Source: Nitrosopumilus maritimus SCM1
GTDB taxonomy: Archaea; Thermoproteota; Nitrososphaeria; Nitrososphaerales; Nitrosopumilaceae
NCBI RefSeq assembly: GCF_000018465.1
Contig: NC_010085.1
Location: 1,260,001-1,292,000, forward strand
Direction of reading: 5' to 3'
Length of the DNA: 32,000 nt
Part shown: positions 13,832-24,148 of the stretch, piece by piece
Layout: each line of letters starts with the position of its first letter
How positions within the stretch are numbered: the stretch's first letter is position 1
Made by a program: the position numbers and the translations under genes
Notes under the pieces: model-generated
The model's database searches: none
Seen by the model: only the letters and a program-made list of their open reading frames with translations
What the model was told of the DNA's origin: nothing

Positions 13832-15244
13832 ATGTATTCTGTGATTTTAACAGAATTGGGAATCTCAGTTTTTGATGATGAAAAACTAGAAAAATCATTT
13901 TCATTTTCAAATCCTGTAAAAGAGTATCTCTCAATAAAAAATAAAGAATCAAAATTAAACGAGGTTATCAATTATTTGGCTTCAATTCAAAGAGGAGTCT
14001 CAGTAAGTGATGATTCACTACTTGCTATTTTGAAAAAAAATAATATAGATTCTCAAATTATGGAAGATTCAGAATTAGAGAGAATTCAAGCATCAAAACC
14101 ACAAATCATTGTTGATTCAGGTTTTGCATCAAATCCTCAAGATGCTTTAGGAAAGTTAAGAGAATTTGCTTTAGGATTATCATCTTCAAAGGTTACTGAA
14201 GTTTCTGAAAGTCCAGATCTTCATATCATTCAAGCAATCAATTCACTAGATGAAATTGACAAAATTGCAAATGCTCTTAGTTCAAGATTAAGAGAATGGT
14301 ATGGATTACATTTTCCAGAATTAGATAACATCATTGATAGTATTAATGGATATGCACAAATTGTTATGGCAGGAAAACGAGAGTCGCTAACAAAACAAGT
14401 TTTTGAAGATGCAGGTTTTCCAGAATCAAAAGTAGAGATGTTGTCTTTAATTTCTACAAAAAGCAGAGGGGGAGATATCTCTGATGTAAATCTTGCAATT
14501 GTTCAATCAATTGCAAAACAAATTTTAGATTTTCATGATTTGCGTAAAAAACTTGAAGAACATGTTGAATCAGAAATGGAAACTATTGCACCAAATCTTT
14601 CTGCAATACTTGGTACAACAGTAGGTGCTAGAATTTTAGGAAGAGCTGGCAGTCTTAAGAGATTAGCTTCACTTCCAGCAAGCACAATTCAAGTTCTTGG
14701 AGCAGAAAAAGCATTGTTTAGATCATTGAAAACTGGTTCTCAACCACCAAAACACGGACTATTATTCCAACATGCAATGGTTCATGCTGCACCTAGATGG
14801 CAAAGAGGAAAAATTGCACGTGCCATTGCTGCAAAAGCAGTCATTGCTGCTAGAGTTGACGTCTACGGAGAGGGCCTAAACAGTACACTACTTGAGAAAC
14901 TCAATGTCAGGGTTGATGAAATTGGAAAGAAATACGAAAACCCAACTGAAAAAGATACCAGAAGACCAGAATCATTTAGACGAGATGGAGGCAATTTCAG
15001 AGATAATCGCAGACGTAGAGATGACAGAGGCGGACGTAGAGATGACAGAGGCGGACGTAGAGATGACAGAGGCGGACGTAGAGATGACAGAGGCGGACGT
15101 AGAGATGACAGAGGCGGACGTAGAGATGACAGAGGCGGACGTAGAGATGACAGAGGCGGACGTAGAGATGACAGAGGCGGACGTAGAGATGACAGACCAA
15201 GTTCAAATAAAAATAAAAAGAGAAAACAGTTTGGAAGAAGATAA
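13832..15244 (+). CDS. nop5: C/D box sRNP core protein Nop5 (Nop56/58) with C-terminal RRDDRGG repeat tail
   Basis: Nop domain motifs are present: GAEKALFRSLKTG and PKHGLLFQH. A coiled-coil middle region is present. The C-terminus is RRDDRGG x8 followed by a basic NKNKKRKQFGRR end. Confidence 0.9.
   Translation: MYSVILTELGISVFDDEKLEKSFSFSNPVKEYLSIKNKESKLNEVINYLASIQRGVSVSDDSLLAILKKNNIDSQIMEDSELERIQASKPQIIVDSGFASNPQDALGKLREFALGLSSSKVTEVSESPDLHIIQAINSLDEIDKIANALSSRLREWYGLHFPELDNIIDSINGYAQIVMAGKRESLTKQVFEDAGFPESKVEMLSLISTKSRGGDISDVNLAIVQSIAKQILDFHDLRKKLEEHVESEMETIAPNLSAILGTTVGARILGRAGSLKRLASLPASTIQVLGAEKALFRSLKTGSQPPKHGLLFQHAMVHAAPRWQRGKIARAIAAKAVIAARVDVYGEGLNSTLLEKLNVRVDEIGKKYENPTEKDTRRPESFRRDGGNFRDNRRRRDDRGGRRDDRGGRRDDRGGRRDDRGGRRDDRGGRRDDRGGRRDDRGGRRDDRGGRRDDRPSSNKNKKRKQFGRR
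15012..15196 (+). repeat. perfect 21-bp tandem repeat (gacgtagagatgacagaggcg), 8 full copies plus a 17-nt partial copy, in-frame in nop5
   Basis: Counted by hand. Units start at 15012, 15033, 15054, 15075, 15096, 15117, 15138 and 15159, all identical. The ninth unit (15180) diverges after 17 nt. Confidence 0.95.
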
Positions 15245-17728: not shown

Positions 17729-18311
17729 AACCTAAACAGACATAATATAACTCACTACTTTGCTTTCTGCTAGCTTTAGGTTTTGTGAGGTTTATTCTTG
17801 CAAATTTTTTCTTTACATAATCTCTAAACTCCATAGAATATTCACCATCAAAGACCTTGAATACAGCATTACCTTTGTGTGCTAGTACTTTATCCATGAT
17901 TTTGGTGCAATCATAATTTAGAGAAATTTGTTTTGCATGATCAACAGACCAATTTCCACTAACTTTGGGGGAAAGATCACAAATCACAGCATTAACTTTA
18001 CGCTCAAAATAGTTCATTACATCATCAACCACATTCTCATCTTCAATATCACCTCTCAAAATTTCTGCTCCTGGAATTTCCTCAACATAAGACAAGTCAA
18101 TCCCCATAACTTTGCCCTGGTTTCCTGCTAGCTTGATTGCCATCTGGGTCCAGCCACCAGGAGCACAGCCAAGGTCAAGAACGTAAAAACCAGGACCGAT
18201 AATTCGATAAGACTGATTTAGTTCTTTGAGTTTGTATGCAGCTCTGCTTCGAAAACCTTGCTCATGTGCTAATTTTCGATAGTGATCTTTTCGTGCATCT
18301 AATAGTTTCAT
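17718..18311 (-). CDS. rlmE: 23S rRNA 2'-O-ribose methyltransferase RlmE/FtsJ
   Basis: Contains RSRAAYKLKEL, DLGCAPGGWTQ and DLSPK. An ATGA overlap with the upstream gene suggests co-translation. Confidence 0.85.
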   Translation of the reverse strand: MKLLDARKDHYRKLAHEQGFRSRAAYKLKELNQSYRIIGPGFYVLDLGCAPGGWTQMAIKLAGNQGKVMGIDLSYVEEIPGAEILRGDIEDENVVDDVMNYFERKVNAVICDLSPKVSGNWSVDHAKQISLNYDCTKIMDKVLAHKGNAVFKVFDGEYSMEFRDYVKKKFARINLTKPKASRKQSSELYYVCLGFIG

Positions 18312-19186
18312 TTGGCCTTCGCAGGTTTTTTCATCTCAGCAATTACCCAATCTTCAATGAATTGGCAGTTTCTAGGACTGATTTCACCTTCAAGTGAGCA
18401 TTTCTGTTCAACAGGACAAACCAAGCAGGGAGAATTTTCAATTGACTGTGTACTAATTGGAGTTTTCTTTAAAATTAATTTGTATGTCCAACGATTCTTT
18501 TCAAGCATTTTTTCTCTAGTGATAAAACCAATTCTTTCAAGTTTTAATGACAGACGGGAACCATCACGACTTGTAAGTTTGAGTTTCTTCCACAATTCAC
18601 TTTGAAACATTCCTTCTGATTCACGTTCAGCCAAAATATCACAGACTTTGTTTGTGAGTCTTTCCATGTCTACTTTTTCTATTTGGAAATTTTCAATTTC
18701 TTCATCAGATAATTGCTCTTCTAATTCTTCCTCAGGGGTTAATTCTTCGATTCTTTTTTGCTCTTCTAATTCTTTTTTGGTTAATTTTTTAGGTTTTTCA
18801 GGTTTTGCTTCTGCTTTCTTTGTTGTTTTCTTTGTAGGTTTTGCTTCTGCTTTCTTTGTTGTTTTCTTTGTAGGTTTTGCTTCTGCTTTCTTTGTTGTTT
18901 TCTTTGTAGGTTTTGCTTCTGCTTTCTTTGTTGTTTTCTTTGTAGGTTTTGCTTCTGCTTTCTTTGTTGTTTTCTTTGTAGGTTTTGCTTCTGCTTTCTT
19001 TGTTGTTTTCTTTGTAGGTTTTGCTTCTGCTTTCTTTGTTGTTTTCTTTGTAGGTTTTGCTTCTGCTTTCTTTGTAGATTTTTTAGGTTTTGAATCTAGA
19101 ATCTCTGTTTTCTTTTTTAATGCATCAATTTCTGCTTTGATTTTCTTTGCTTCATCAACTAATTCTTCTTTTTTCTTTGCCATCAA
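18308..19186 (-). CDS. winged-helix + 4-Cys protein resembling TFE-beta / RPC34, with a Lys-rich tandem-repeat N-terminal extension
   Basis: The C-terminal SPCLVCPVEQKCSLEGEISPRNCQFIEDW (Cys254/257/263/274, nt 18365-18427) matches, from memory, the CxxCPV...C...ISPxxCxY..W Fe-S motif of RPC34/TFE-beta. It is preceded by a wHTH-like segment (SELWKKLKLTSRDGSRLSLKLERIGFITRE). The N-terminal ~165 aa consist of a coiled coil, KPTKKTTKKAEA x7 and an acidic linker. An ATG at 19183 directly follows the TTG at 19186. Confidence 0.55.
   Translation of the reverse strand: MMAKKKEELVDEAKKIKAEIDALKKKTEILDSKPKKSTKKAEAKPTKKTTKKAEAKPTKKTTKKAEAKPTKKTTKKAEAKPTKKTTKKAEAKPTKKTTKKAEAKPTKKTTKKAEAKPTKKTTKKAEAKPEKPKKLTKKELEEQKRIEELTPEEELEEQLSDEEIENFQIEKVDMERLTNKVCDILAERESEGMFQSELWKKLKLTSRDGSRLSLKLERIGFITREKMLEKNRWTYKLILKKTPISTQSIENSPCLVCPVEQKCSLEGEISPRNCQFIEDWVIAEMKKPAKAK
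18801..19075 (-). repeat. perfect 36-bp tandem repeat (plus strand ggttttgcttctgctttctttgttgttttctttgta), 7 full copies plus a 23-nt partial copy, in-frame
   Basis: Counted by hand. Units start at 18801, 18837, 18873, 18909, 18945, 18981 and 19017, all identical. The eighth unit (19053) diverges after 23 nt. Confidence 0.95.
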
Positions 19187-19232: not shown

Positions 19233-19709
19233 CTATTTAACAGTAAATTCTTCACTAGTAGAGATATTTTTTAGATCCTTTGAAATCATTTGTGCTACGA
19301 TTTTGTAGGAACCAGCAGTATCTATAACCTCAGAGAATTTGTCCCCAATTGGAATTAATGCATTTTTTTCAGCAAAACATTGTTCAAGAAATCCGCCTTG
19401 AGTTATCACATCTTCTCCAGAATAAATCGTGATGTATAGATCTCCACAATCAAAATGAGAATCAGAAACTTGGACAAATATCGCTACGGGTTCAGAAGTT
19501 GAGTATGATTTTGAGAGTCCAATTATTTCAATATCAGAACTATGGGCACTTACTCCAGAACCATGTGAGCCTCCTACAGTAGGTGCTGAAGGCATCATGT
19601 TTAATTCTCGTCCAGGCTCTTGCAAAATATCACCCATAACAGCAGAACCAAAAGCAATTGAGAAAATTACTGGTAAGACAAATACAACAAAAATTCTTTT
19701 TGATGCCAT
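19233..19709 (-). CDS. small secreted or membrane-anchored protein, single beta-sandwich-like domain
   Basis: The N-terminal MASKRIFVVFVLPVIFSIAFGSAVMG is signal-peptide or anchor-like. The C-terminal AGSYKIVAQ...EEFTVK resembles the terminal strands of the repeats in the 722-aa protein at 21980. Confidence 0.6.
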   Translation of the reverse strand: MASKRIFVVFVLPVIFSIAFGSAVMGDILQEPGRELNMMPSAPTVGGSHGSGVSAHSSDIEIIGLSKSYSTSEPVAIFVQVSDSHFDCGDLYITIYSGEDVITQGGFLEQCFAEKNALIPIGDKFSEVIDTAGSYKIVAQMISKDLKNISTSEEFTVK

Positions 19710-19812
19710 TTTGTTTTCAAATTACTGTTTCCCCTATATCTATTTAGCAAACCCTTTGACTTCAGATCAATTTGACGAATGAGTTAAATCGTAGCCGACT
19801 AAATATCGCTAG

Positions 19813-21906
19813 ATGCGACTTAGAAAATTCAGAGTTAGGGCATATCGTTGCATTCATGATTCTGGAGAAATTACAGTTGGAGACTTGGCAGCATTTATTG
19901 GAAGAAATGAAAGTGGTAAAACTACCATTCTTCAAGCACTGACCCTTCTAAATAGAGGCGAACAAGTTTCAGAGCTAGATCTTTGTGATGAAATGAGTGA
20001 TGAACTCAAAGAAGAGATTAGACTTGCAGAAGGAGAATTTGAATTAAATCAAAATGAGATGGAAATGGTAAAAGAGAAATTTCCAGGCCTTCCAGAAATG
20101 AAAAAAATTAGATTATTTAGGACAAATCAAAATCCCAAAGTGCAATACGAGTTTGACGATATTGAGCTTGGTGAAGAAGAGAATAAGGGACTTAATTCAT
20201 GGGAGAATTTTGCAAAACAGATTATAGAGTTTTTAGATACAATTCCAAATCATCTTAGAATTCAAGTAAACACATCATTCTTTGAAGGAGATGTTCCAAA
20301 CAGCCAAGAATCATTTGATAGAGGAATGGCAGAATTTAGCAATCAATTTCATGTTGTTGCAATGCAAGAACCAAAAGTAATTGAAGAATGGGAAAAGATC
20401 TATGAAAGTCCAGAAAGTCAATTTTCAAATTTACTCAGTGGAAAAAGCGAAAAAACAGCTCTACAAAATTTCATAGAATCAGAGTTACATCCAAGATTTG
20501 TTTATTTTTCAGATTATAAAAAAATCTACGGAAACATAAATCTCAATGAATACATGAGAGAAGAAAAGGGTGAAAGAGCAGATTCTATTGAATATGTTGA
20601 AGAGTTTGACAAGGCAGAAACGGTGAGAAATCTCTTCTATCTAGCAGAGCTGGACATGAATGAGTTAGAAGAAGTAAAAGAGAGCCCATCAAAATGTATC
20701 AAACTACTAAATGCTGCAAGCAACAGATTGACTAGTAAACTAAATCCTGCATGGAAAGGAGATCCAATTCATGTAGACTTGAGATATAATCCAGGAAATA
20801 TTATGAGTGTTGTAATTTCAGATGTACACAAAGATGGAACTGTAACAAATACAGGATTATTAAATAGAAGAGCAGAGGGTTTCAAATGGACGTTCTCTTT
20901 TATTGTAAACTTTGCAGCTGAAACACAAAGAGCAGAATTAAAAGAAGCAATTTTACTTTTAGATGAACCGGCAAGGAATCTTCATCCAACACAACAGATG
21001 GGAATATCGGATTTGTTAAAAAATCTGGCAGGTTCAAATCAAGTTTTGTATGCAACACACTCACCATTTATGATATTTGATTATACTCCAGGAAATTTGC
21101 TTGTTGTAGAATTAGACAAACGAAAACATCTAAGTCGAATATTTTATGATTATTGGAATGCAGATGATAAAACACTTACACCAATTTTGTATGGATTATC
21201 TAGAGGCCAAGTAGAATCAATAGTAGACAGAGAGATAGGAACAAACTCTAGACCAGTAATAATTGTAGAGACAATGTCAGATTCAATGTATCTAAATGCA
21301 TTTGACAAATTCTTACAAGATCCAAACATTTCAATGAATCCACTTAATGTTGTTGCAGCATATAACAAAAATTCAGTTTTGCCATTGGCAATATTTTATA
21401 GAAATCATGGATACAGAACCTTTATTCTATTAGACAATACTGAGGAATCCAAACAAATTTCAGCACAACTAGTTTCAAATGAGTTTTCACCAATTCAGAC
21501 AATTTTCTTTGAATTGGAAGGAAAAAAGCTTGAATCAATTGAAGATTATATTGTTCTTGAAGATTATCTACACCCAGTAAATCAGACTTATGAAATCAAG
21601 TTAAGGCGAGAAGGGTTTTCAAATCTTGCACCAGAAGATGTGTTATCAAAAGAGGGCAAAGGTAATTTAGAAAAATTAAAGAAAATTTGGCAAGAACACA
21701 GTGATGATGATTGGGGTCAATTCAACAATGAAGAGATTACCAGATACATTTGTGAAAAAATATCATTAGAAGAAACCAGCTTTCTGTCAGATAAAACTAA
21801 AGATCAATTCAGATCATTATACAGACTAATTGCAGAACGAATCAGACAATATCAAAATGTTAACGCAAAATCAGATTTAGATAAATTTCAAAAGGCCAAA
21901 GCTTAA
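19813..21906 (+). CDS. OLD-family / PARIS-like ABC ATPase with C-terminal TOPRIM-like (DUF4435-like) module; candidate defence nuclease
   Basis: Walker A GRNESGKTT (aa 30-38), signature-like RRAEGFKWTFSF (352-363), Walker B ILLLDEP (380-386), ATHSP (414-418). After these come PVIIVETMSD (481-490) and FILLDNTEE (537-545), arranged like the TOPRIM Glu and acidic motifs. Confidence 0.7.
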   Translation: MRLRKFRVRAYRCIHDSGEITVGDLAAFIGRNESGKTTILQALTLLNRGEQVSELDLCDEMSDELKEEIRLAEGEFELNQNEMEMVKEKFPGLPEMKKIRLFRTNQNPKVQYEFDDIELGEEENKGLNSWENFAKQIIEFLDTIPNHLRIQVNTSFFEGDVPNSQESFDRGMAEFSNQFHVVAMQEPKVIEEWEKIYESPESQFSNLLSGKSEKTALQNFIESELHPRFVYFSDYKKIYGNINLNEYMREEKGERADSIEYVEEFDKAETVRNLFYLAELDMNELEEVKESPSKCIKLLNAASNRLTSKLNPAWKGDPIHVDLRYNPGNIMSVVISDVHKDGTVTNTGLLNRRAEGFKWTFSFIVNFAAETQRAELKEAILLLDEPARNLHPTQQMGISDLLKNLAGSNQVLYATHSPFMIFDYTPGNLLVVELDKRKHLSRIFYDYWNADDKTLTPILYGLSRGQVESIVDREIGTNSRPVIIVETMSDSMYLNAFDKFLQDPNISMNPLNVVAAYNKNSVLPLAIFYRNHGYRTFILLDNTEESKQISAQLVSNEFSPIQTIFFELEGKKLESIEDYIVLEDYLHPVNQTYEIKLRREGFSNLAPEDVLSKEGKGNLEKLKKIWQEHSDDDWGQFNNEEITRYICEKISLEETSFLSDKTKDQFRSLYRLIAERIRQYQNVNAKSDLDKFQKAKA

Positions 21907-21979: not shown

Positions 21980-24148
21980 ATGACTAGTTTGAATATAATG
22001 AATAAATCCTCGATGAGAGGAATTTTCCTTTCAATTGTACTATTATTTTCAATAACATTAGTTTCAATTCCAGATAACGTGTATGGTCAAGAGATTAATG
22101 CTAACAGTATAGGATTGGAAGAAACCGTGATTATAGAATTTACAAATGAATTAGATAAAGAAATCAATACTTTTAGAATTTGGCTTGGTTCAGGTTTTAA
22201 TTTTGAATCTTTTAAAACCGAAAAAGGATGGTTAGGTGAAAAAACACCACAAGGGGTTATAATTTTTACAACTTCTGAACCTATCAAAAAAGGAGAAACA
22301 GTGAAGTTCGGAATAAAAACGGATACCAAAAATCCAGGAATTAATTGGAAAGCAATTGACACAAAAAGTGAACAACAAGGTATGGGCAAAGTGCTACCAG
22401 AAGAATTACCTAAAGTTGTAGAAAATACTGAGATTAAACCAGTAGAAAACATTGAGGATAAACCAGTAGAAACAGGAATTCTTTCTGATTCAGTTTTTAG
22501 AATAATTCCAGAAAAGCCCAACATAGGGTCATCAATCAGAGTAACTGGAGATAATTTTGGTTCTTCAGAAGAATTTGACTTTTACATAGATAATTCAAAA
22601 ATCGGTAGTTTTGTAACAGATGAGAATGGTCACTTTATGACAACAATGCAGATTCCAGAAAATCAAAATGCAGACAGAGTGGATTTTAAAGTCAAAGATA
22701 GTGAAGGAGGAGAGAAAAAGTATAGTGTGAGAATAGAAGAGATAGACAACAGGATTGCAGAAGAAAATGTTAAACTCACAATCAAAGGAATACCAAATGT
22801 AATTCATAGAGGAGACTTTTTGGAGATTTCAGGTACAGGAGATCCTAATAGTGCAGTTACTGCAGAAATAACTAGTCCAGATGGAGAGATTATTAATGCA
22901 AGAACAGCGGAAATTGATGCCAAAGGAAATTGGGAATTAGCAGAACCAATAGTTGTTGCATTAGACACACCATTTGGCAAATACAGTGCAACAATTACTG
23001 ACGGACGAGAAAGTATACTAAAATCATGGACTGTTGAGTCTGACAAAATAATAATCGTGGCGCCAAACAAATTGAAGTTTGAACCAGGAGAAGTAATGAT
23101 ATTTAATGGAACTGCTTTGCCTAACAAACCAATTGAATTTATTTTGGAAGATCCACAAGGTAAAGAATTATTTTCAGACATTATTCAAATAGATGAATCA
23201 GGGCATGTGGAATTCGAATACGCTACAGTGCAATCATCACCTAAAGGAACATACACATTGATTGCAACACAAGAGAAAGACACAGAATTCATATTTGCAG
23301 GACTCGGTCAATTACCTACAACTCCAGTGAATTTAGAATTTGATGAACTCAATTACAATGCAGGAGATACAGCAATAATTTCAATTACAGGAAAATCTTC
23401 AGAAATTGCTAGTCTGTTAATCATAGACCCATCGGATAAGCCAAAAGGAGATACAGTGTCCATTCAATTAGCACCAGATGGTACTGCAGTATATGAACTG
23501 GACTTGACAGGATTTGCATCAGGAGTGTATTCTGCAGTAGTTAGTAAAGGAACCGCACAAAGTACAGAAATTTTCACAGTAGGATTACAAACAGGTTCAG
23601 GAGAAATCAAAATCAACACTACAAAATTAGATTATTCCCCAGGTGATTCCATTCTAATTCTAGGAGATACAGGAGAAAATGTTTTGTTAACAATATCTTT
23701 GGCAGATCCTGATGGAAACATAGTAAAAGAAAAGGATACTTTTTCAGATAAAAATGGAAAGATTTCTGAAAGTACATTTAGAATTCCATCAGATGGAAAA
23801 GGTGGTATGTGGTCAATTAATGCAAAAAGTGGTTCAAACTTCCACACAATAGAGATCGATGTTATCGCCACAGTTACGGAAGGAGTTCAGATAAGTGTCG
23901 AGGAAGGAATTAATGTTCCGGGTGTTGGTGATTCAATGCAAATCAAGATAGTCGGCGTTAGTCAAACTGTACAAATTGAAATAATTGCAGCAGATGGAAC
24001 AGTCATAGATTCATTAGAATTTGTTGCATCATCTGGAGGAGAAATAAACCAACCATGGATAATTCCTAAAGACACTGCACCAGGAACATATACAATCAAA
24101 GTGGAAGATGCATTTACTTCGGCAGAAGATACTTTTGAGATAAGTTAA
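21980..24148 (+). CDS. large secreted protein with about 6 tandem Ig-like/beta-sandwich repeats (cell-surface protein)
   Basis: Signal peptide MRGIFLSIVLLFSITLVSIPDNVYGQE, then a KPVE-type linker. Modules of about 95 aa each end in G-x-Y/W-[ST]-[AIL]: FGKYSATI, KGTYTLIA, SGVYSAVV, GGMWSINA, PGTYTIKV. There is no C-terminal TM segment. Confidence 0.7.
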   Translation: MTSLNIMNKSSMRGIFLSIVLLFSITLVSIPDNVYGQEINANSIGLEETVIIEFTNELDKEINTFRIWLGSGFNFESFKTEKGWLGEKTPQGVIIFTTSEPIKKGETVKFGIKTDTKNPGINWKAIDTKSEQQGMGKVLPEELPKVVENTEIKPVENIEDKPVETGILSDSVFRIIPEKPNIGSSIRVTGDNFGSSEEFDFYIDNSKIGSFVTDENGHFMTTMQIPENQNADRVDFKVKDSEGGEKKYSVRIEEIDNRIAEENVKLTIKGIPNVIHRGDFLEISGTGDPNSAVTAEITSPDGEIINARTAEIDAKGNWELAEPIVVALDTPFGKYSATITDGRESILKSWTVESDKIIIVAPNKLKFEPGEVMIFNGTALPNKPIEFILEDPQGKELFSDIIQIDESGHVEFEYATVQSSPKGTYTLIATQEKDTEFIFAGLGQLPTTPVNLEFDELNYNAGDTAIISITGKSSEIASLLIIDPSDKPKGDTVSIQLAPDGTAVYELDLTGFASGVYSAVVSKGTAQSTEIFTVGLQTGSGEIKINTTKLDYSPGDSILILGDTGENVLLTISLADPDGNIVKEKDTFSDKNGKISESTFRIPSDGKGGMWSINAKSGSNFHTIEIDVIATVTEGVQISVEEGINVPGVGDSMQIKIVGVSQTVQIEIIAADGTVIDSLEFVASSGGEINQPWIIPKDTAPGTYTIKVEDAFTSAEDTFEIS

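Follow-up and report, generated by a model that had tools for sequence, protein, structure and literature searches.

OLD nucleases, in which an ABC ATPase is joined to a C-terminal Toprim nuclease domain, are commonly taken as markers of anti-phage defence. In the OLD protein of Thermus, the ATPase residues are K34, E276, H283 and H310, and the nuclease site holds metal A through E377, D431 and D433 and metal B through D381, S478 and E480, with R487, at a Lys/Arg position, as the transition-state residue (Schiltz et al., PMC7049728). Cran1 (SiRe_0086) is an ATPase/nickase of OLD class 5, clade U11, which is found in Sulfolobales only and mirrors the species tree; its gene cannot be removed and cycles in step with the cell cycle, and the protein nicks DNA, is purified together with chromatin proteins and has no antiviral effect (PMC12796447). 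Here we describe an OLD-family gene of the ammonia-oxidizing archaeon Nitrosopumilus maritimus SCM1, located in a stretch of 32,000 nucleotides (contig NC_010085.1, positions 1,260,001 to 1,292,000) that was analyzed as a whole and is called the window below. A preliminary description of the window had presented the gene as an OLD/PARIS-like, single-gene defence candidate inserted into a variable surface-protein locus. We find that in Nitrosopumilaceae the gene is a single-copy, vertically inherited core gene and not a mobile defence gene, and we propose, with a probability of roughly 0.55, that it encodes a domesticated ATPase-nickase of the OLD family that works on the chromosome of the cell itself, in replication, segregation, repair or the cell cycle.

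The product of 697 amino acids is 100% identical to ABX13294.1 (WP_012215781.1, UniProt A9A3N2) of N. maritimus SCM1. Public databases already label ABX13294.1 a predicted OLD-family endonuclease, and the family annotation is thus known. The motifs read from the translation in the preliminary description, GRNESGKTT, RRAEGFKWTFSF, ILLLDEP, ATHSP, PVIIVETMSD (residues 481-490) and FILLDNTEE (residues 537-545), all lie at the residues it gave, and the Pfam profile E-values and the invariance across relatives argue that they are not chance occurrences. The motif residues are constant in 81/81 sequences of Nitrosopumilus and Nitrosarchaeum and mostly unchanged even in relatives of 23-40% identity in the family alignment. 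The features of the gene are the following:

19813..21906, + strand: open reading frame of the OLD-family ATPase-nuclease, 697 amino acids plus stop codon
19900..19926, + strand: Walker A motif (P-loop) GRNESGKTT, residues 30-38, aligned to the Thermus OLD P-loop
20170..20757, + strand: mainly helical insert of the ATPase, residues ~120-315, as predicted in the AlphaFold2 model
20866..20901, + strand: signature-like motif RRAEGFKWTFSF, residues 352-363
20950..20985, + strand: Walker B motif ILLLDEP, residues 380-386 with D384-E385, followed by the D-loop His in NLHP (H391)
21052..21066, + strand: H-loop ATHSP, residues 414-418, with H416
21253..21552, + strand: predicted Toprim nuclease domain, residues 481-580, with E486, D490, D541 and S575-I-E577-D578
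21553..21903, + strand: C-terminal helical domain, residues 581-697, from the predicted structure

The chromosomal setting sets this gene apart from a mobile element. One genome per GTDB species was scanned, 319 had a relative of the gene, and the best 80 of these 319 were taken for comparison; all are Nitrosopumilus or Nitrosarchaeum with proteins of 86-97% identity, and the gene is carried by 80/80. Almost all loci with sufficient flank show the order Nop56, fibrillarin, RNase HII, Trm1, RrmJ, an Rpc34-like gene, a gene for a protein of 158 amino acids on the minus strand, the OLD gene on the plus strand, an MG2-domain gene, APRT and MTAP, the exceptions being a few genomes with another upstream flank or an accessory insertion. 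The same order is found in Nitrosotenuis (74% identity) and in a lineage of 70% identity; a lineage of 58% identity (L087), whose protein cluster has 787 members, shows it minus the 158-residue gene, and a contig of 57% identity (L088) retains its downstream part. The ratio of nonsynonymous to synonymous substitution rates (dN/dS), determined by the Nei-Gojobori method for each gene against the window sequence, was 0.053 for the OLD gene, on par with the adjacent housekeeping genes RrmJ (0.049), MTAP (0.061) and fibrillarin (0.063); APRT gave 0.082. The secreted proteins on either side gave 0.19 (158 amino acids) and 0.20 (722 amino acids), about four times the value of the OLD gene. Position and neighbours are the same in nearly all 80 loci and dN/dS is housekeeping-like, so that the idea of an insertion into a variable surface-protein locus does not hold; the gene is fixed between the same neighbours in these loci and in three deeper lineages, and placement in a defence island is likewise not supported.

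Pairwise distances between the OLD proteins followed the concatenated distances of the neighbouring genes (Mantel r 0.76; 0/999 permutations as high) at about half their size (slope 0.47), and the comparison gave no sign of transfer within the family. The gene is inherited vertically throughout the lineage and without defence partners, a likeness to Cran1 in behaviour and not in clade. The preliminary description had held that synteny in all relatives, combined with a grouping with RecF/RecN/SbcC-type ATPases, would speak against its proposal; the gene is indeed syntenic in nearly every relative examined, but it groups with OLD nucleases.

The protein is a genuine member of the OLD family, with an ABC ATPase carrying a helical insert, a Toprim domain and a helical domain at the C-terminus. 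It matches the Pfam families AAA_15 (E 2.5e-24, residues 1-421) and AAA_21 (E 1.7e-13) and the PADLOC profile Old (E 1.4e-18), and the alignments of several GajA profiles from PADLOC run through the Toprim domain as far as residues 550-603. The top sequence match in the PDB is the OLD protein of Thermus scotoductus (6p74; 3.9e-7 with the single protein, 6.8e-13 with the family profile), and PtuA, retron ATPases, AriA and GajA all score below it. An AlphaFold2 model of the full-length protein, built on an alignment of 43 sequences, had a mean predicted local distance difference test score (pLDDT) of 82.9, and its best structural match in the PDB was again 6p74 (1.2e-11), followed in second to fourth place by the GajA structures 8u7i, 8x5i and 8sm3, with 595-741 aligned columns. 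In a library of viral structures, the matches were confined to ABC/SMC-like ATPases of giant viruses and phages and are uninformative. The OLD-type combination of ATPase and Toprim proposed earlier is borne out by these profile and structure matches and by the likeness to Class 2 C-termini described below.

The ATPase half appears fully equipped. In an alignment of 16 sequences with identities down to 23%, the P-loop residues G30, N32, E33, G35, K36 and T37 are invariant, and they are likewise constant in 81/81 sequences from Nitrosopumilus and Nitrosarchaeum. G356, W359, S362 and F363 of the signature-like motif are invariant family-wide and R353 is nearly so; L382 to P386, H391 and the H-loop residues T415, H416, S417 and P418 are invariant in the family alignments. 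The set formed by K36, D384-E385, the D-loop H391 and the H-loop H416 is complete and invariant, and it aligns to the segments of Thermus OLD that hold K34, E276, H283 and H310, with the P-loop Lys, Walker B acid, LHP His and H-loop His of OLD-family ATPases all present. The Walker B segment also aligns to LLIEEPEVNMHP of Cran1, and the H-loop to its TTHSP, in which H280 and S281 are required for ATPase activity (PMC12796447).

A long helical insertion at residues ~50-340, as first described, stands in part. Helices occupy residues 125-225 and 244-313 of the AlphaFold2 model, but strands of the ABC fold (70-113, 229-243 and 319-349) also lie inside these limits. The helices lie after the P-loop lobe and before the lobe of the signature and Walker B motifs, as in the OLD family, and by analogy with Thermus OLD they may be the counterpart of the insert through which OLD proteins dimerize (PMC7049728). 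The proportion of invariant columns is 85% in the ATPase core (residues 346-445), 74% in the linker, 66% in the Toprim domain and lowest, at 25%, in the helical insert (residues 51-225).

The Pfam family OLD-like_TOPRIM, with a cut-off of 23.2 bits, reached 17.6 bits (residues 479-542) with the full-length query and 20.9 bits (E 5.2e-4) with the C-terminus alone, both below the cut-off, and it was the sole Pfam family found consistently in this region, matching 14/18 C-termini of the family (best E 4.7e-5). A profile of the C-terminal region found no match among PDB sequences at E <= 10. A separate model of residues 468-697 (pLDDT 89.7, predicted template modelling score (pTM) 0.84) shows the strands and alternating helices of a Toprim fold, with strand 1 ending in E486, strand 3 ending in D541 and a helical domain after them. 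Its top five PDB matches in Foldseek were C-terminal regions of Class 2 OLD proteins (6njw, 6nk8, 6njx and 6njv among them; probability 0.87-0.99, E ~3e-3), and with TM-scores of 0.33-0.41 the matches are specific, not tight. Lines of evidence of moderate strength, structural match and sub-threshold Pfam match, converge here, and the predicted Toprim assignment is well supported. The Foldseek alignments, including those to 6njw and 6nk8, cover 221-232 columns for a query of 230 residues. The tail of about 150 residues, said earlier to resemble nothing recognized, therefore has aligned counterparts in the Class 2 C-terminal regions, and residues 581-697 of the model have an arrangement resembling that of the helical domain behind the Class 2 Toprim. 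Y593 and W634 within it are invariant in the family alignments.

Within the Toprim domain, the expected Glu (E486) and the acidic residue at +4 (D490) are invariant family-wide, as are E577-D578, with S or D at position -2 (S575-I-E577 in N. maritimus). D541 is invariant in Nitrosopumilus and Nitrosarchaeum and ~90% conserved family-wide, with Gly or Asn in some relatives. E486, D490, D541, S575, E577 and D578 are, together with the ATPase residues, constant in 81/81 Nitrosopumilus/Nitrosarchaeum sequences. As had been noticed from the sequence, the second acidic motif is DNTEE and not DxD: the second Asp is replaced by Thr/Ser in all 81 sequences, which read DN[T/S]EE with E544 and E545 next to it, and in most bacterial relatives this position is Glu (DNE). 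By motif pattern and order, without superposition of coordinates, D490 and S575-I-E577 fit D381 and S478-x-E480 of Thermus OLD.

The architecture cuts across the described OLD classes. The gene stands alone like those of Class 1 (6p74, P2 Old): no gene for a helicase, a reverse transcriptase or an AriB-like protein lies next to it in the window or the loci. By motif order, the presumed metal ligands follow the pattern of Thermus OLD (Glu, acid at +4, Asp on strand 3, S-x-E). Class 1 proteins are, however, shorter (a chain of 528 residues compared with 697 amino acids) and lack a helical domain after the Toprim, whereas helices are predicted here at residues 581-697 and the C-terminus matches Class 2, not Thermus OLD. 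The N. maritimus protein further differs in its canonical Asp-Glu in Walker B, where Thermus OLD has Glu276, and in retaining only the first Asp of DxD, and no counterpart of Arg487 was found. P2 Old is carried by a phage and serves defence/exclusion, whereas the N. maritimus gene is chromosomal and core. With Class 2 (GajA; 6nk8, 6njw, 8sm3, 8x5i) the protein shares the C-terminal Toprim and helical domain, but TM-scores are low (0.31-0.41) and sequence likeness beyond the ATPase is marginal. No UvrD/GajB-like helicase is adjacent in the window, as first stated, or in the 80 loci; the position directly downstream, that of GajB in Gabija, is taken by the MG2 secreted-protein gene in every locus with downstream flank.

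PARIS AriA/AriB (class 4) has in common with the protein an ABC ATPase of the AAA_15 type. The PARIS-like label did not survive closer inspection, and we rejected this reading. The PADLOC AriA match covers the generic ATPase (residues 1-421), with an E-value and profile span almost the same as those of AAA_15, and in the PDB profile search AriA (3e-5) ranked under OLD, PtuA and retron ATPases. No DUF4435 match was found with Pfam at E <= 1, no AriB-type DUF4435 Toprim effector is present either separately or fused, and the two-gene arrangement is missing. The defining features of OLD classes 3 and 4 are absent. Because the gene is stand-alone like Class 1 with a helical C-terminus, and has the layout of Class 2 without GajB, the protein is best described as belonging to an unclassified OLD clade. 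This clade was not found in the part of the PMC12796447 dataset available as text. Dataset EV1 of that paper does list other, unrelated OLD proteins of Nitrosarchaeum/Nitrososphaerota as Class 1 (e.g., MCE9653553 and MCL4344233), so that some ammonia oxidizers have another OLD gene, probably accessory, besides the core one.

A search for homologues over 1.84 billion cluster representatives revealed a gap in identity: a thaumarchaeal cluster at 76% or more, with fragments at 46-60%, is followed by full-length relatives at 32-41%, and those with names belong to bacteria (Methylacidiphilales, Acidiferrales, Planctomycetales and Acidobacteriota). The surroundings of these more distant relatives vary and in many cases are of the type found in defence islands or mobile elements. 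One has a phage integrase directly upstream and a Y1 transposase near (L082); one lies with Peptidase_M78 and DUF4411, a DNA methylase and a helicase with an MZB gene (L083), one with a LexA-like repressor, an MmeI-like restriction-modification gene, HicB and PemK (L090), and one with genes of the MJECL32/33 element (L081). Two further loci (L084, L091) gave no clear contextual signal. In all, 84 plasmids, many conjugative, carry relatives of ~25% identity, and a search of 50,697 phage records gave one weak match only. OLD relatives are mobile and defence-associated in bacteria, whereas in the Nitrosopumilaceae branch the gene has a fixed place on the chromosome, and the lineage probably acquired it once from the mobile, defence-associated pool of its bacterial relatives and then fixed it. 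On the conjugative plasmid p1 of Vibrio echinoideorum, a full-length relative of 26% identity (L089:5480-7983) is preceded at 12 nucleotides by a hypothetical gene of 170 amino acids, with a Ser/Thr kinase and PP2C phosphatase pair near; the bacterial branch may have a partner gene, as this arrangement suggests.

The sequence directly before the start codon is also under constraint. Across the 81 genomes, 58% of the columns at -48..-1 are at least 95% conserved, compared with 5.5% of the third codon positions of the OLD gene, and the block is nearly invariant despite a dS of ~1.1. It was kept in L073 and L080 despite different upstream genes, and no second copy was present within the window. 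The element is:

19771..19812, + strand: conserved upstream element TTTGACGAATGAGTTAAATCGTAGCCGACTAAATATCGCTAG, 42 nucleotides directly before the OLD start codon

It is probably a promoter with a transcription factor B recognition element (BRE) and TATA box (TTAAAT) together with an adjoining site for a regulator, and TTTGACGAATGAG in the upstream region is a candidate factor-binding sequence.

The proposed role in chromosome function starts from features that the data support directly, namely the family, the domain layout, the conservation of catalytic residues, the fixed position in the genomes compared, strong purifying selection and the contrast with the bacterial relatives. In the mechanism we envisage, binding and hydrolysis of ATP at the ATPase head, which would probably be dimeric through the helical insert, control the Toprim site; this site, composed of E486, D490, D541, S575 and E577, would be of the two-metal type and would nick or cleave DNA. 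The enzyme would probably take part in routine chromosome function, matching Cran1, be it replication, segregation, repair or cell-cycle progression. Both proteins are OLD-family members of TACK archaea, lineage-wide, vertically inherited and without defence partners. In each of them the ATPase motifs are complete (EP..HP D-loop, THSP H-loop) and DxD is degenerate (L-x-D in Cran1, D-N-T/S here), and neither evolves in the way that defence OLDs of bacteria do. They differ in that Cran1 is ~55 kDa, monomeric and paired with a membrane-protein gene, whereas the N. maritimus protein has a helical insert of ~200 residues and no comparable conserved operon partner; essentiality, cyclic expression and nickase activity are measured properties of Cran1. 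We advance only tentatively, at somewhat short of even odds, the stronger proposition that Nitrosopumilaceae independently turned an OLD enzyme of the mobile pool into an essential chromosome-maintenance or cell-cycle factor, as a second, convergent case beside Cran1.

Several observations weigh against a chromosomal role. The alignment to Cran1 covers the P-loop and the segment from Walker B to the H-loop only (BLASTP 3e-8 over 44 residues; 90 N-terminal columns in hhalign), and orthology to Cran1 or membership of U11 was rejected since only generic ATPase motifs align. Apart from Cran1, all characterized relatives are anti-phage proteins, and the closest relatives lie in defence-like contexts. 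The neighbours are RNA-modification and purine-salvage genes, with no hint of a link to replication or the cell cycle. For relatives of 32-60% identity, cluster look-ups give a taxonomy for almost none, which limits how far the extent beyond Nitrosopumilaceae can be read. At the nuclease site, the second Asp of DxD is Thr/Ser, and the family alignments, without structural superposition, contain no invariant Lys/Arg matching the catalytic Bp K562, Ts R487 or P2 K550, so that nuclease competence is presumed from the remaining residues. No paper on ABX13294.1 was found in a literature search by protein, accessions and guessed locus tags.

Much of this would also suit a fixed single-gene anti-virus nuclease comparable to P2 Old or the Class 1 protein of Vibrio cholerae, in which an infection-sensing ATPase licenses the Toprim domain to cut viral or host DNA. 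Membership of the OLD family, the PADLOC Old and GajA matches, the intact catalytic residues and the presence of the nearest relatives on plasmids and, in bacteria, in defence or mobile settings all point in this direction, and bacteria are indeed defended by stand-alone OLD proteins (PMC12392090). A gene that holds its position in nearly all 80 loci and three deeper lineages fits such a role poorly, as do a dN/dS at the level of housekeeping neighbours, the lack of visible transfer within the family, a region that is not variable and the single weak match among the phage records. Defence genes normally have a patchy distribution and a fast turnover. Cran1 moreover shows the same pattern with a non-defence role (PMC12796447), and we regard a fixed antiviral nuclease as possible but rather unlikely.

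Two further readings dispense with either the nuclease or the family. The protein could be an ATP-driven DNA-binding or clamping scaffold, or a sensor, with a dead nuclease site, cleavage having been lost or being done by another protein. DN[T/S] in place of DxD in all 81 sequences, the replacement of the first Asp by Gly/Asn in some relatives, a Thr or Asn for the Gly of the usual VEG motif, the Lys/Arg counterpart that was not identified and a Pfam Toprim score below the cut-off would all agree with this. It is hard to see, however, why six acidic/Ser residues of the site should be invariant, and 66% of the Toprim columns with them, without a functional site, and the adjacent E544 and E545 could stand in for the missing Asp. 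A degenerate DxD need not mean inactivity, since Cran1 with L-x-D is a strong nickase, and loss of cleavage thus appears improbable. Less probable still is that a recombinational repair ATPase of the RecF/RecN/SbcC/Rad50 type was misread as OLD. This would draw on weak N-terminal matches to RecF (TIGR00611, 8e-6, residues 4-53) and SMC_N, Rad50 and SMC heads among the structure matches, and one database record that calls a homologue of 76% identity RecF. The RecF and SMC_N matches are confined to the P-loop region, while OLD and GajA are best in both sequence and structure, the C-terminus is a Toprim and helical region like OLD C-terminal regions, and the window shows neither a coiled-coil/zinc-hook nor, next to the gene, a partner of Mre11 or SbcD type. 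The RecF/Rad50 assignment was rejected on the grounds of the P-loop-restricted matches and the OLD-like C-terminus, and the chromosome-directed ATPase-nickase remains the reading we prefer.

The core status of the gene in ammonia oxidizers and the parallel to Cran1 appear to be unreported in the literature searched, and looking there for surveys of defence in Nitrosopumilus turned up nothing specific. Automated defence finders would count the Nitrosopumilaceae gene as defence, and yet it represents a distinct OLD clade that behaves like a housekeeping gene, with a fixed position, strong purifying selection and a constrained promoter region, in an archaeal group that ranks among Earth's most abundant. 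If the chromosomal role is true, a second immune nuclease has independently been put to cellular use, and the protein offers a way into the replication and the cell cycle of ammonia oxidizers, whose machinery is little known; if convergent recruitment is true, such recruitment of OLD proteins is a recurring theme in TACK archaea. Should the gene instead be a fixed defence gene, it would be a rare case in which a streamlined marine archaeon has innate immunity among its core genes. In both cases, caution is called for when OLD homologues are scored as defence systems in archaeal genome surveys.

The OLD gene is flanked by two genes for secreted proteins, the first of which does not belong to the OLD system:

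19233..19709, - strand: secreted or membrane-anchored protein of 158 amino acids, divergent flanking gene
21980..24148, + strand: secreted MG2-domain (alpha-2-macroglobulin-like) protein of 722 amino acids, flanking gene 3' of OLD

The former is in place in 78/80 loci and evolves fast (median identity 60%), and its protein had no match in a Pfam scan. The latter carries an MG2 domain (Pfam, 1.3e-24) as well as Ig-like domains, and is the downstream neighbour of OLD in every locus with flank, including L085, L086, L087 and L088. The two had been thought to share a domain type. No shared domain was found, Pfam giving MG2 for one and nothing for the other, and BLASTP detected no relationship between them (E 0.34).

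In L088 (6869-9141), the OLD, MG2, APRT and Topo VI genes are each fragmented, which looks like frameshifts of long-read assembly and not like true pseudogenes. Other genes occasionally occupy the upstream side. In a metagenome-assembled genome (MAG) of Nitrosarchaeum (L073:2466-5578), an ectABCD-like ectoine/hydroxyectoine cluster lies directly 5' of the OLD promoter, and in a Nitrosopumilus MAG (L071:5415-7137), a Cys-rich secreted protein of 433 amino acids and a small membrane protein are encoded there; with L080 as a further case, the upstream junction is therefore an occasional point of insertion or rearrangement. Farther upstream in the window, the Rpc34-like winged-helix protein (18308-19186, - strand) contains eight copies of the low-complexity repeat KKAEAKPTKKTT, and the Nop56/58 homologue ends in ~nine GGRRDDR copies (about 15080-15230, + strand), which yield long spurious open reading frames in other frames.

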